Positions 46,749 through 64,000 of a stretch of DNA of 64,000 nucleotides are shown here, one piece after another; the stretch's first letter is position 1, and every line of letters begins with the position of its first letter. A program made the translations under genes and the position numbers. Location: assembly GCF_058153355.1 (NCBI RefSeq), contig NZ_CM177019.1; one strand, written 5' to 3'. A model generated the notes under the pieces. It had not been told where the DNA came from, searched no databases, and was given only the letters and a program-made list of their open reading frames with translations.

Positions 46749-46786
46749 CTGAGCTGAAATAACGGCATATCAGGCTACATGCCGGG

Positions 46787-46836
46787 TGAAGCGGCGCACG
46801 AAAAACGCGAAAGCGTTTCACGATAAATGCGAAAAC
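46787..46836. promoter_or_regulatory. Mu right end (attR) with terminal MuA transposase binding sites
   Basis: tgaagcggcgcacgaaaaacgcgaaagcgtttcacgataaatgcgaaaac is the Mu R-end sequence as I recall it, starting with the terminal TG. Confidence 0.85.
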
Positions 46837-46901
46837 TTTAGCTTTCGCGCTTCAAATGAAACAGCAGTATTAATTACTGCTTTTTATTCATTGCATGGGG
46901 A

Positions 46902-47597
46902 TCACTTAGGGTATGGCTGAACCCTGAATAGTTTGGTATTTAGCCGCTTCCTTGCTCGCTTGTTCAGGAATCTGATATAGCGATACTGATTAAATTTGTG
47001 CACTACGGCACGCTCTTTATTAGCCCGTAAATACACGCCTCGTTGTCCACCTCGCTTAATCGCGTTCATCGTTATCTCGTGATACCACTCACCATCCAGC
47101 TCGTAGAACGTACTTTCATGACTGCCAATAAAATCAAAATTCGACGCCTGATACACAACGCCTGCGCGTCCGCAGCGTTCGTCAGCAAAGGACTGAACCC
47201 ACTCCACTGACGGATACAGTAATCTGATAACTTTCAGCGCGTAGCTGATGGCCCGTGATTCAGAGTTGCGGGGCATGTCGTCGTGTAGCCACATGCGGTT
47301 CAACTCCATATAGCCCCGGTTATCCGTTTCAAGCACGACACGACGACCTGAGTTGGGGTTAAGGGCATATCCCCACTGGAGAACGCCAACCAGATCGCGC
47401 CCGCTGAATACTCCCAGGTGGAGGTAAGAGTTATTCACAAAACGGCGGGAATAGTGCTTTGTCTGAATAATTGTGCGGGCCAGCCAGCAGGATATGGTTT
47501 CAACGCGCAGCTCCTTTGAACCATAGCCAACAATCTGGCCTTCATACTCAATAACGCACGGTTTCGTCAGAATGCGTGATTTTTTCTCTTTTCCCAC
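46902..47597 (-). CDS. mom: Mu Mom DNA-modification protein; start tentative (GTG at 47597)
   Basis: Last gene before the right end. ORF is open from 47627; the start is set to give about 231 aa and a ~50-nt overlap with com. Confidence 0.7.
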
Positions 47598-47736
47598 AAT
47601 GTTTCTCCGTGGGATGCTCGCAGGCATTCAGCATTATGATGTGACGTTTGCAACGCGGACACCTGATTTCAATGTGATCAAAGGAATCCGCCTTAAATAA
47701 CAGTTTGTTGCAGTTTTTACAGCGAATTGATTTCAT
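47548..47736 (-). CDS. com: Com zinc-finger translational activator of mom
   Basis: 62 aa with CxxC...CxxC ([34 protein letters not shown]...). Confidence 0.85.
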
Positions 47737-47818
47737 CTCACCTCCTTTGCATCAATTCGCCACTATCTTAAAAAACATCATGGGTTGAGTGTGGTTATTG
47801 GGGCATAATCGATCTGTA

Positions 47819-48412
47819 TTACCGATCGATTTGATTGATTCGATCGTCGTTTTCTATATGCGTTCGTTTCGCGGGGTGTTTTTTATACAGAGTTGACAGG
47901 GCCACATCGTAGATCAATGCAACCTGCTTGCGGGGGATTCCTTGTGCTAATAAACGCCCGGCCTGCTCCCATTCCGCTTTGGTTAGTTTAGGTGGTCGCC
48001 CACCAATACGGCCTTTATTTCTGGCGGCAGCAAGTCCAGCCATCGTTCGCTCGATGATTAGTTCTCGTTCCATTTCAGCTAGGGCACCCATAACGTGGAA
48101 GAAAAAACGCCCCATTGGAGAAGATGTATCTATGCTGTCGGTCAGACTGCGAAAATTAATCCCTCGCTCCCGTAGTTCCCCGACGAGAGAAATCAGATGT
48201 TTCATGCTTCGCCCGAGACGATCCAGTTTCCAGACAACCAGCGTGTCACCTTTTTGAAGGCGCTTTAAAGCGCGTTTTAATCCCGGTCGGTCTGTCTTTG
48301 TCCCGCTTAATTTATCTTCAAATATTTGTTCACATCCTGCACAAACAAGAGCGTTTCGTTGCAGGTCTGTATTCTGGTCATTTGTTGATACCCTTACATA
48401 GCCAATCAGCAC
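47819..48412 (-). CDS. gin: serine DNA invertase Gin; probable GTG start
   Basis: Resolvase/invertase N-terminus (LIGYVRVSTNDQNTDLQRNAL) with catalytic Ser context and C-terminal HTH; adjacent to the G segment. Confidence 0.85.
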   Translation of the reverse strand: MLIGYVRVSTNDQNTDLQRNALVCAGCEQIFEDKLSGTKTDRPGLKRALKRLQKGDTLVVWKLDRLGRSMKHLISLVGELRERGINFRSLTDSIDTSSPMGRFFFHVMGALAEMERELIIERTMAGLAAARNKGRIGGRPPKLTKAEWEQAGRLLAQGIPRKQVALIYDVALSTLYKKHPAKRTHIENDDRINQIDR

Positions 48413-61832: not shown

Positions 61833-62035
61833 TTCGATTTACTCCGTTTTTTCGGCGCAGTGTCGGTATCATCCGCCGTGTTTTCGGTGCTCCCGACTTC
61901 AACCACATCACCGGCTGCAAGGCGACGTATCCAGAAACTGTTACGGGGCTTTTCTTCTCCCTCAGACGCCAGTAATTTCATCGTGAGCGGGTCACGGATG
62001 GCTTTTCCCGCTGCGGGTTTAATTTTCAGCATCAT
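61829..62035 (-). CDS. small phage protein of unknown function
   Basis: 68-aa ORF, overlapping neighbours in operon fashion. Confidence 0.4.
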
Positions 62036-62567
62036 GATCCTTTTCCTGATTCACATTGATATGTGCGGCAAATTCCGGGGTTTCGTCCGGGAATTTCCAG
62101 GTCTGCCAGTGGCGCTCGTAATCATCCAGCGAATCCATGTCCACCACGGACGGCAGCGGGGTAGTGCCACTGAACAGAACACCGTAAAGCACCACACCGG
62201 CATTGATACGGTTGTCGTCACAAAGATTTCTGACCTGCGTCAGTCTCATCCCGGTGGTCGGGCCAAACGTCTGACCGTTAACACCGGCAATCAGTCGCTC
62301 CACAATCTGATAAATACCGGGCCGGTTTACCTGTTCCCCGTTCAGCAACTCCGCCACGACAAAAAATGCCCAGCGACTTTCAACTTCCCGACGCGTACGC
62401 CCCTCACCACAGCCCATCCATGCCAGAAATACCGATGGCGGGGCCAGAAAGAGACGGTGCACATCCTCGTTAGTCCATGTGCCGGTAAGGGGTTCCACCT
62501 GCCGCAGGGTTGCCCCAAACAACTCACGAACGCGCGCCAGCAGTGCGGCTTCGGTTTCTTCCAGCAT
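62019..62567 (-). CDS. phage head-tail joining/virion protein
   Basis: 182-aa ORF, position. Confidence 0.5.
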   Translation of the reverse strand: MLEETEAALLARVRELFGATLRQVEPLTGTWTNEDVHRLFLAPPSVFLAWMGCGEGRTRREVESRWAFFVVAELLNGEQVNRPGIYQIVERLIAGVNGQTFGPTTGMRLTQVRNLCDDNRINAGVVLYGVLFSGTTPLPSVVDMDSLDDYERHWQTWKFPDETPEFAAHINVNQEKDHDAEN

Positions 62568-62992
62568 CAGATAAACCCCTTCTGTTTTCGTGAGAAGACC
62601 GGCGCGTCAGACTGCACCTGCACAAGGTTTTCACCATCCGGCGAGGCTGCCGTCCTGCTTTCCACGCCGGGATCTGTTTTGCCATCGCGCACCTGTTCCA
62701 GCCAGCGCACTGTGTCCCTGTAGGCAGCGGTGATCTGCTCGGTGGGTTGTGATTCATTCAGATAAAACCAGGCCACCACGCAACACTGCCGTTTCAGCAG
62801 TGAGGGGACGACGGTAAGCGGCAGAACAAAGCGCGCGGCGAGATAGCCATCAATAAAGGCCGAAGCATCTGCCAGTGCCTGTTCTGCCACGGCATCATCC
62901 GGCTGCCCGTCCGCTGTTTTAGGGCGGGTGAGAATATCCAGCCGCGTACGTGTATAGCGGGCGCACAGGTCATTTACCGTCGCGTAATTCAT
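62567..62992 (-). CDS. phage head-tail joining/virion protein
   Basis: 141-aa ORF, position. Confidence 0.5.
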   Translation of the reverse strand: MNYATVNDLCARYTRTRLDILTRPKTADGQPDDAVAEQALADASAFIDGYLAARFVLPLTVVPSLLKRQCCVVAWFYLNESQPTEQITAAYRDTVRWLEQVRDGKTDPGVESRTAASPDGENLVQVQSDAPVFSRKQKGFI

Positions 62993-63399
62993 GCATCCGC
63001 CTCAGCCTGCGCCGCTTTGATTTGCGCGCTGCTTACCGGTTCCCCCAGCGCCGCACTGACGGCTTTCACTTTGGGTTCCCCCCCTGCGGTAAAGTGTTCC
63101 GGGTTTGCCTTATCCAGACCGGCAACGGTCGCACGGATACGGGCGTTCAGATCGCCCACACCCAGAACGTCCAGCCCCCCAGCCTCAGCGAGCGTTTCTG
63201 CTGACGATGCAGATACCACAGACAGCACGCTGTCGGCACGAATGATCGCCAGTTGTTCTTCGGTGACTTCCACGGTGTTTTCGCCACGTGTAAAGGCGAT
63301 TCCGGCGCGGCGGTAGACCGGACGAAGGCATTTAATAATCGCCGTGCAAGTGATGCGAGAAGTGCCCAGCCGTTGTGAATTAAGCGAAGTGCCTGACAT
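62989..63399 (-). CDS. phage structural protein
   Basis: 136-aa ORF, position. Confidence 0.45.
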   Translation of the reverse strand: MSGTSLNSQRLGTSRITCTAIIKCLRPVYRRAGIAFTRGENTVEVTEEQLAIIRADSVLSVVSASSAETLAEAGGLDVLGVGDLNARIRATVAGLDKANPEHFTAGGEPKVKAVSAALGEPVSSAQIKAAQAEADA

Positions 63400-63465
63400 A
63401 ACACATGCTCCTCCTTTTCCTTTAAATCAGGTTAAAAGGCGGTCTGAACCGCCTTTTAATGACGG

Positions 63466-64000
63466 TTACAGGTAGTCAGCGACAACCAGTTGCAGCTTGC
63501 CCTTCATCTCGTTGGAGACGGTGGTATTGCCATCCGCGAACAGTTCACGGTTAAGCAGTTGCTCTGCGGCTTTTTCCAGCCCGACCGGTACAACGATATG
63601 CGTCGGCTTCAGGCCCAGCTTCTTACCGCCATCACCTTCAAAAGATCGCATCAGTTGCCAGCCCTTCCAGAGGTTATCCAGCGTCAGATCGCCTTTTACC
63701 GCGACAGCCATCTGCCAGAAGCCGTAACCGGCAGCACGGCGGGCGCTGGCACCAAACAGGAACTCGTTATCCATAAAAACGTGGTCGTCATCGATACGGG
63801 TACGTGCGACCAGTTCCGGTTTGCGGCGCTCCTGGAAAATCAGCGGTTTGACTGCGCGGGAGCAGTCCAGCAGATAGAATGGCAGACCGCTGAAGCTGTC
63901 CTGCTCAACGATGTTGGAGGTATTAACCGCGCTGCCCGTGCCGTCCACATTCGGATATACCGGATGCTCCTTGTCGAAGAAGTTCTGACCGTCATAGCAG
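63466..64000 (-). CDS. major capsid protein, C-terminal part; gene runs past the window end
   Basis: Frame is open from 63466 to the window edge with no stop upstream of the listed start; position ahead of the tail module. Confidence 0.6.
   Translation of the reverse strand, partial: CYDGQNFFDKEHPVYPNVDGTGSAVNTSNIVEQDSFSGLPFYLLDCSRAVKPLIFQERRKPELVARTRIDDDHVFMDNEFLFGASARRAAGYGFWQMAVAVKGDLTLDNLWKGWQLMRSFEGDGGKKLGLKPTHIVVPVGLEKAAEQLLNRELFADGNTTVSNEMKGKLQLVVADYL

Follow-up and report, generated by a model that had tools for sequence, protein, structure and literature searches.

Within a stretch of 64,000 nucleotides (hereafter the window) we identified the right-hand 17.2 kb of a Mu-type prophage that, in combination with a sister assembly, very probably reflects natural lysogeny of a wild E. 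coli by a variant of phage Mu (genus Muvirus), established by one insertion into the spacer between yihS and yihR. Judged by its sequence, the prophage is apparently complete and intact, and it is a mosaic with Mu immunity. Since the 17.2 kb are about 97% identical to Mu-family phages, chance is ruled out as the source of the resemblance.

The final host gene ahead of the prophage is yihS, encoding the sulfoquinovose isomerase, an intact open reading frame of 413 aa on the plus strand (45507..46748) that bears this name in the annotation of matching E. coli genomes. Host DNA was alignable to uninterrupted E. coli loci as far as 46786, and the next base, 46787, corresponds in the alignments to the final position of both Mu (36717) and SfMu (37146), which is where the original prediction had placed the border; the 50-mer quoted for the Mu right end was likewise confirmed in the window. 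The terminal 78 bp of this right end (attR, 46787..46864, minus strand, terminal TG...CA) are identical to Mu and constitute what we take to be the region holding the MuA-binding sites R1-R3 in Mu. In the uninterrupted form the yihS-yihR spacer is 67 bp long and Mu lies 38 bp past the stop codon of yihS, with 29 bp left to the yihR ATG; the insertion is intergenic, so no gene is broken, and yihR is intact (300 aa). The long yih sulfoquinovose cassette of E. coli comprises ompL-yihOPQRSTUVW (PMC12608037). The contiguity of yihS and yihR within it is lost here and the halves lie 36.7 kb apart, with csqR, yihV and yihUTS inside the window and yihR-tauE beyond the prophage, all of them intact. The downstream yih genes are separated from yihUTS by the prophage, as had been anticipated; the disruption also envisaged for them is contradicted by the intact yihR. 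Identities of 90-95% in the search of complete E. coli genomes for the junction prompted consideration of a host other than E. coli, which was excluded because yihS is up to 99.1% identical to E. coli and the exact YihS protein is widespread in this species.

Sister-strain contigs were reached by exact-protein look-ups with the rare tape measure protein, GemA and YihT, the YihS, portal and Gin proteins being too common for this purpose. Two contigs of the Logan run SRR31441161 (_122 and _60, corresponding to window positions 39613-48485 and 51549-64000) showed 0 mismatches to the window over 8,873 and 12,452 bp, 21.3 kb in all, and the left 19.5 kb of the prophage together with the left junction were taken from this run, which is identical wherever it overlaps the window and is possibly another isolate. 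With the junction marked by a slash, its right junction reads yihS...ATGCCGGG/TGAAGCGG and its left junction ...CAATACA/CCGGGTATGTCG-yihR, or more fully ...GAATCAATACA/CCGGG/TATGTCG...ATG(yihR); here the Mu left end (TGTATTGATTCACTTGAAGTACG...) abuts CCGGG, followed by TATGTCG...ATG of yihR. The presence of CCGGG at both prophage junctions of SRR31441161 demonstrates that the 5-bp target-site duplication, whose right-hand copy occupies 46782..46786 in the window, is real; the recurrence of this pentamer at the other end had been foretold and named beforehand as a test. MuA prefers the 8 CYSRG pentamers 7-fold in vivo (PMC7350765), and CCGGG is among them. The run SRR8656992, near-isogenic with 1 mismatch over 7,175 bp, has the site empty with a single CCGGG, and a single copy is also present in every examined E. 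coli locus with the 67-bp spacer form. The yihS-Mu junction occurred in 0 of 5,426 complete E. coli genomes, which, along with the near-isogenic empty site, agrees with the predicted strain specificity of the insertion, and exact-pattern scans of one genome per species for the predicted left and the observed right junction gave no match. A Mu-type right end is carried by 102 of the 5,426 complete genomes.

The composite prophage (window plus sister assembly) starts with TGTATTGATTCACTTGAAGTACG, ends with ...CGTGCGCCGCTTCA and measures 36,720 bp versus 36,717 bp for Mu, in line with the predicted size of at least 17 kb and probably about 37 kb. The first 200 bp of attL contain 2 mismatches to Mu. 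In the sister assembly, beyond the window, c and ner share 98.9% and 100% amino acid identity with Mu, while the DDE transposase A (663 aa) and the AAA+ target-capture protein B (312 aa), encoded on a sister contig outside the window, are 98.9% and 97.8% identical and match the corresponding Pfam families. All four genes are intact and of Mu type, the immunity region being Mu-type and not SfMu-type, and the head and lysis genes are all full length. Early gene products gp7, gp12 and gp19 of Mu have no counterpart in the composite, and gp6 is 76% identical to Mu.

At the right end sits the modification module. The mom gene for DNA adenine modification (46902..47627, minus strand, 241 aa) encodes a full-length product that matches SfMu Mom at 100% and Mu Mom at 99.6% identity, and com, the translational activator of mom (47548..47736, minus strand, 62 aa, 100% identical to Mu and SfMu Com), overlaps the mom start, an arrangement that is conserved. 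It is followed by gin for the serine DNA invertase (47819..48412, minus strand, GTG start, 197 aa; 99.5% identity with SfMu Gin, 99.0% with Mu Gin), and a protein identical to this Gin has Resolvase and HTH_7 Pfam matches on record. Beyond the G segment 14 further late genes, all full length, run collinearly on the minus strand. The order mom, com, gin, G, tail and head stands as originally read. The baseplate group (52063..55833), 94-98% identical to Mu, full length and gapless, consists of gp48 (52063-52605), gp47 (52596-53678), gp46 (53679-54116), gp45 (54113-54706) and P/gp44 (54694-55833). Next come N/gp43, the DNA circularisation protein (55826..57313, 495 aa, 97.8% to Mu and 99.6% to SfMu), and the gp42 tape measure protein (57318..59390, 690 aa, 94.9% to Mu and 98.6% to SfMu), whose exact sequence was present in only 5 contigs of the public collection. 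The tail group (59535..62035), again full length and 95-99.6% identical to Mu, includes the gp41 chaperone (59535-59969), the tube gene M (59979-60335), the sheath gene L (60345-61832) and gp38 (61829-62035). Both gp37 (62019-62567) and gp36 (62567-62992) are of Mu type, being 97-99% identical to Mu as is gp35 (62989-63399) and only 73% and 51% identical to SfMu, respectively; SfMu gave no megablast match at 62428-62988. The major head protein gene T is cut by the window end, its 3' part (63466..64000) being collinear with Mu gene T, and the full T of 305 aa on the sister contig is 99.3% identical to Mu T. All 21 complete prophage genes in the window (mom to gp35) are full length and gapless, and the stretch from gp48 through gp35 to the 3' part of T shows neither gaps nor stops relative to Mu. 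Nothing within the prophage was picked up when the window was scanned for Rfam families and tRNAs.

The predicted invertible segment of about 3.07 kb with inverted gix sites was recovered as a G segment of 3,075 bp between gix centres (48480..51554; 3,101 bp outer to outer). Its two 26-bp gix sites, TTATCTAAAACCTCGGTTTACAGGAA beside gin (48467..48492) and TTCCTGCAAACCGAGGTTTTGGATAA within S (51542..51567), form an inverted repeat and each has 1 mismatch to Mu gix. By BLAST the segment is reversed with respect to Mu NC_000929 and collinear with SfMu. It holds two pairs of S-variable and U genes in opposite orientation. On the plus strand lie a silent variable tail-fibre part of Sv type that is unjoined to Sc as assembled (48538..49503) and a silent tail-fibre assembly gene of Mu U type (49505..50032, 175 aa; 89% identity with Mu U, 95% with its SfMu counterpart); the silent fibre part is nearer to its SfMu counterpart (94.7%) than to Mu Sv (62%, S residues 142-503). 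On the minus strand, in the expressed orientation, are the tail-fibre assembly gene of Mu U' type (50061..50594, 177 aa; 97.7% identity with Mu U', 100% with its SfMu counterpart) and the tail-fibre gene S, composed of Sc and a variable part of Mu Sv' type (50597..52063, 488 aa, 97.1% to SfMu S), in which 51577-50600 aligns to Mu S' residues 3-328 at 95.7%. The SRR31441161 contigs stop at 48485 and 51549, which are the last bases common to both G orientations, and exact words common to the two gix regions do not exceed 14 nt. Breaks at exactly these bases are expected from a culture that contains G in both orientations. Among ten prophages with an identical Gin, the expressed fibre set was split 5 to 5, and the 5 of them with a located terminus each adjoin a different host sequence. 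The exact S fibre protein had no record in the public protein look-up, possibly because short-read assemblies of the strain break inside S at gix.

We propose that one MuA/MuB transposition would have set the 36.7-kb Mu genome into the 67-bp yihS-yihR spacer, duplicating CCGGG. The c repressor would keep the prophage silent, with transposition and phage production possible, and Gin would flip G in culture, switching the host range between the two fibre sets. Mu insertions being polar, yihR and any genes co-transcribed with it would lose transcription from the sulfoquinovose-regulated yihU promoter. The c gene and yihR point the same way, with 372 nt from the c stop to the yihR ATG downstream and no terminator-like site found in this interval. 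That Mu lysogeny alters sulfoquinovose metabolism, either by polar silencing or by read-out from c through attL into yihR, seems unlikely to us. If the polar version were true, yihR and the co-transcribed sulfite exporter, sulfoquinovosidase and transporter genes would be silenced, while in the read-out version the downstream half-cassette would become constitutive and controlled by the prophage.

Several other origins of the element were weighed. It might be a defective or cryptic Mu remnant that, through inactivating point mutations or lost functions, neither transposes nor forms particles, as the missing homologues of gp7, gp12 and gp19 in the early region could indicate, and as missense defects might cause among the many proteins differing from Mu by 2-5% of their amino acids. 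However, the semi-essential region of Mu that holds these three genes is dispensable, and no frameshift, stop or truncation was seen in about 50 genes compared; both ends are intact, the contig breaks at gix argue for an active Gin at least, and an empty site in a strain with 1 mismatch over 7 kb, hence near-isogenic, indicates that the prophage was acquired recently. The degraded state with frameshifted late genes that had been considered from the outset was checked as well, and the late genes were free of frameshifts and the Mu left-end sequence was present; we therefore hold a remnant to be improbable. Even less probable is a lysogen of SfMu or D108, other Muvirus species with other immunity, although, of all phages, SfMu matches the window part best overall, with 97% covered at 97.0% identity, and the G segment, tape measure and N are nearer to it: the first 1.5 kb with attL, c and ner are 97% identical to Mu with no SfMu alignment, and the c and ner proteins as well as gp36 and gp37 are of Mu type.

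The wide use of Mu in laboratory strains, and the presence of S17-1 among the right-end matches, could point to a laboratory derivative (Mu cts, mini-Mu or an RP4::Mu strain) or to a chimeric assembly. Yet the independent short-read assembly gives both junctions with zero mismatches, the exact 5-bp duplication is the mark of real transposition, and the element shares only about 97% identity with laboratory Mu. Moreover, the host has no close relative among the 5,426 complete E. coli genomes (at best 99.3% identity) and is therefore not K-12, so that we consider this origin extremely unlikely.

A natural lysogen of a Mu variant is ordinary biology: the element is a textbook one, already known, and changes knowledge neither of Mu nor of sulfoquinovose catabolism. 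Its practical value is modest, consisting of a documented natural lysogen with both junctions defined and an indirect sign of active G inversion. For annotation, the yih cassette of the strain should be regarded as split by a prophage and not as truncated. Furthermore, the lysogen and the empty-site strain form a natural pair in which the dependence of yihR and the genes beyond on the yihU promoter could be addressed. Wild-type Mu is not known to be induced by mitomycin or by heat, thermoinducible Mu being confined to cts alleles, so the induction experiment suggested at the outset would probably be uninformative.

Compared with known phages, the prophage resembles Mu (NC_000929/AF083977; Muvirus mu) in both ends, length, gene order, c, ner, A and B, mom-com-gin and gix; the late genes reach 94-100% amino acid identity, and about 96% of the length aligns at about 97% on the nucleotide level. 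It differs from Mu in the reversed G segment of the assembly, in an Sv-type fibre part with only 62% identity, in the absence or replacement of three genes of the semi-essential region (gp7, gp12 and gp19) and in a diverged gp6. Of the 36.7 kb, about 35.3 kb align to Mu in BLAST pieces, for the most part at 97% but at 82-93% in the G segment, which brings identity multiplied by coverage near 95%; ICTV practice requires members of the species Muvirus mu to share 95% or more identity with Mu across the whole genome. With Shigella phage SfMu (NC_027382; Muvirus SfMu), the top match to the window part, the prophage has in common the G-segment arrangement and fibre genes, identical Mom and Com and the closely similar tape measure, whereas the first 1.5 kb of the prophage are without alignment, gp36 and gp37 are divergent and prophage positions 5059-7484 are only 88% identical. 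D108, which has its own immunity region, Mu_3F6, PhiR68_1 and the Yersinia phages vB_YpM_* show the same late-gene layout and 95-98% identity over 72-90% of the window part, but their coverage is lower, chiefly across the G segment. In P1/P7-type phage-plasmids with Cin and the invertible C segment, the segment resides in a plasmid prophage and not in a transposable phage, and what they have in common with the element described here is only the fibre cassette, about 3 kb of the G segment, including the S/U fibre genes, at about 90% identity.

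The last host genes ahead of the prophage, all on the plus strand, are yihU (43693-44589), yihT (44613-45491) and yihS (45507-46748), and the host spacer 3' of the yihS stop codon comprises 38 bases, the last five being CCGGG (46782-46786), directly followed by tgaagcggcgcacgaaaaacgcgaaagcgtttcacgataaatgcgaaaac. When 46749-64000 was searched by megablast against 50,697 phage records, base 46787 aligned with the final base of both Mu (36717) and the Shigella phage SfMu (37146), and the other 17.2 kb of the window were covered at ~97% identity to Mu/SfMu. The 78 terminal bp of the prophage right end are identical to Mu. 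Thus the alignment to the Mu reference proposed in the original prediction reaches the final base of Mu, and the Mu right end begins, as predicted, at the base after 46786. In E. coli loci without the insertion the sequence is ...GGCTACATGCCGGG TATGTCGTTATTCAATAAAGGTGCCTCGT ATG(yihR), which places the prophage in the 67-bp yihS-yihR spacer, 38 bp past the yihS stop and 29 bp ahead of the yihR start, where it interrupts no gene.

Because the window ends inside gene T, the left end had to be sought in other assemblies; neither the left nor the right junction turned up in pattern scans of a single genome per species. The exact tape measure protein was found on just five public contigs, one of which, the Logan contig SRR31441161_60 (45,261 bp), shows 100.000% identity to window 51549-64000, and the left end was reached by walking along it via the rare GemA protein. 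In window orientation its left junction reads ...cgtacttcaagtgaatcaataca / ccggg / tatgtcgttattcaataaaggtgcctcgtATG, so that the Mu left end is followed by another copy of CCGGG and by host sequence that resumes exactly at the break in the window, with yihR and then a tauE-family gene beyond it. Look-up of the rare YihT protein yielded another contig from this run and SRR8656992_171. SRR31441161_122 is 100.000% identical to window 39613-48485, including the yihS-Mu right junction; together with SRR31441161_60 it therefore provides both junctions in one sample, which agrees with the window over the full overlap of 21,325 bases. The CCGGG repeat at the other end and the Mu left end, which had been set as a test beforehand, are hence both present in SRR31441161. 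SRR8656992_171 differs from the host DNA at 39613-46787 by 1 mismatch in 7,175 bp and has an unoccupied site with just one CCGGG, yihS and yihR being contiguous; this strain is a near-isogenic non-lysogen and would make a natural control. CCGGG is among the eight CYSRG pentamers preferred ~7-fold by MuA in vivo (PMC7350765). The yihS-Mu junction, predicted to be strain-specific, is not spanned by any genome in a set of 5,426 complete E. coli genomes, 102 of which possess a right end of Mu type that includes mom and com.

Across the comparison loci L003-L013, the E. coli yihS-yihR spacer occurs in two forms, one of 67 bp, to which the window lineage belongs, and one of 118 bp with a GC-rich hairpin (CCCTCTCCCC AAA GGGGAGAGGG). 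The shorter form contains a 6-bp inverted repeat (CGGCAT...ATGCCG), and the target CCGGG overlaps its 3' arm. The host sequence of contig SRR28786219_117 is 100% identical to the window over 39613-46515 and the contig ends at window-equivalent 46515, inside yihS and 272 bp short of the insertion site; the Mu prophage in that run shows 20 mismatches in 12.4 kb to that of the window.

All annotated Mu and SfMu genes of the region were translated and compared with the window by tblastn. Mom, Com, Gin, both fibre and assembly gene pairs, gp48, gp47, gp46, gp45, P, N, the tape measure protein, gp41, M, L, gp38, gp37, gp36 and gp35 align full length and gap-free to the Mu proteins with no internal stops, at 94-100% identity to whichever of Mu or SfMu is closer, with every gene but the silent fibre pair on the minus strand. 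The order of mom, com, gin, G segment, tail and head genes is as originally described. As the tape measure alignment begins at the Mu start codon, the 721-aa length of the listed ORF reflects only an in-frame ATG further upstream. Joined to SRR31441161_60, with which it overlaps without mismatch, the window gives a composite prophage of 36,720 bp (Mu, 36,717 bp), in line with the anticipated ~37 kb. The left-end genes on SRR31441161_60 are c (196 aa), ner, A (663 aa) and B (312 aa), and all Mu proteins from c to T align full length and gap-free, except gp7, gp12 and gp19, whose counterparts were not found in the composite prophage. The Mu early region with these three genes is dispensable. With the window late genes and the remaining c-to-T proteins full length, the element is not a degraded remnant. 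The first 4.8 kb of the composite are 97% identical to Mu and no SfMu alignment exists before position 1508, so the immunity region is of Mu type. With a wild-type c repressor, induction by mitomycin or heat is unlikely.

The G segment is bounded by inverted 26-bp gix sites at 48467-48492 and 51542-51567, each with one mismatch to the Mu site and 3,075 bp apart from centre to centre, in agreement with the ~3.07 kb estimated. It is inverted relative to the Mu reference: the variable part fused to the constant part Sc of the fibre gene is of the Mu Sv' type (95.7% identity) and the next gene of the U' type (97.7%), whereas in the silent pair the fibre part is of the Sv type (identity 62% to Mu and 94.7% to SfMu) and the assembly gene of the U type (89% to Mu). 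Were both G orientations present in a culture, an assembler would be expected to halt where the junction sequences first differ. Comparison of the window with an inverted version built in silico put the first differing bases at 48486 and 51548; the contigs of SRR31441161 stop at positions equivalent to 48485 and 51549 of the window, and one from another run, SRR28786219, likewise stops at 51549. Exact words common to the two gix regions are at most 14 nt long, so the repeat alone should not break the k=31 graph of the Logan assemblies. From the contig ends at 48485 and 51549 we infer, specifically, that G inverts and that both orientations were probably present in the culture. Among ten other prophages with identical Gin, one fibre set occupies the expressed position in five and the other set in five, and in the five prophages for which an exact end motif revealed the right terminus, the adjacent host sequence is different each time. 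Over 48530-51540, ~3 kb of the G segment share ~90% identity with the invertible C segment of phage-plasmids of the P7/P1 type and with phage P88 fibre genes, a likeness that represents the known exchange of fibre cassettes among unrelated phages.

Of the predicted effects on downstream genes, disruption does not hold, as the insertion is intergenic and yihR (300 aa) is intact beyond the prophage; uncoupling stands only as probable. Mu insertions are classically polar, so yihR and anything co-transcribed with it are probably cut off from the yihU promoter. Alternatively, one might speculate on transcriptional read-out from c into yihR: both genes point the same way, the c stop precedes the yihR ATG by 372 nt, and no terminator-like site turned up in a simple scan of the stretch in between. 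Uncoupling from the yihU promoter would concern a gene that is induced by sulfoquinovose in K-12; a definition of the yihR promoter was not found in the sulfoquinovose literature examined. Between yihR and yihQ, the window lineage (positions 1-413 of locus L029, from SRR31441161_60) and most of the comparison loci L004-L013 have a gene for a sulfite exporter of the tauE/safE family, which is missing from L006 and L011.

The host DNA (1-46786) has no close relative in the set of 5,426 complete E. coli genomes: identity reaches at most 99.3% over 1-22000 and 98.5-98.7% over 22000-46786. Host gene order is standard (yiiS...tpiA-pfkA-cpxRA-sodA-rha-frv-fdo-fabY-yih). In the variable slot between yiiE/fdhE and fabY, a minus-strand 637-aa ORF (36597-38510) has no NCBIfam or PADLOC match and no identical version in any comparison locus; elsewhere this slot holds a truncated hypothetical gene and a transposase (one strain) or a 604-aa protein without Pfam matches (other strains). 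Two ORFs at 29946-32996 are fdoG split by an in-frame TGA, and a SECIS element (Rfam SECIS_3 match, 30528-30586) lies just downstream of it; the split is normal selenocysteine decoding and fdoG is no pseudogene. Rfam matches of sRNA or REP type are naRNA4 (9494-9571) and ES036 (4448-4489).

Taken together, the finding is correct, complete and ordinary, and the original interpretation is supported with four small refinements, which concern the intergenic site, the orientation of the G segment, the Mu-type immunity and the unlikely induction by mitomycin or heat. The element is a mosaic of Mu and SfMu-like patches, closer to SfMu in the G segment, whose arrangement is the same in the SfMu record, in the tape measure protein and in the N protein, whereas gp36 and gp37 are Mu-type, with only 51% and 73% identity to SfMu, respectively. 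By BLAST alignment its identity to Mu is ~97% over ~96% of the length, and its formal place in the species Muvirus mu would be borderline. In all defining features, namely the ends, the 5-bp duplication, MuA and MuB, c and ner, gin-gix-G, mom-com and the late genes, the element is phage Mu.
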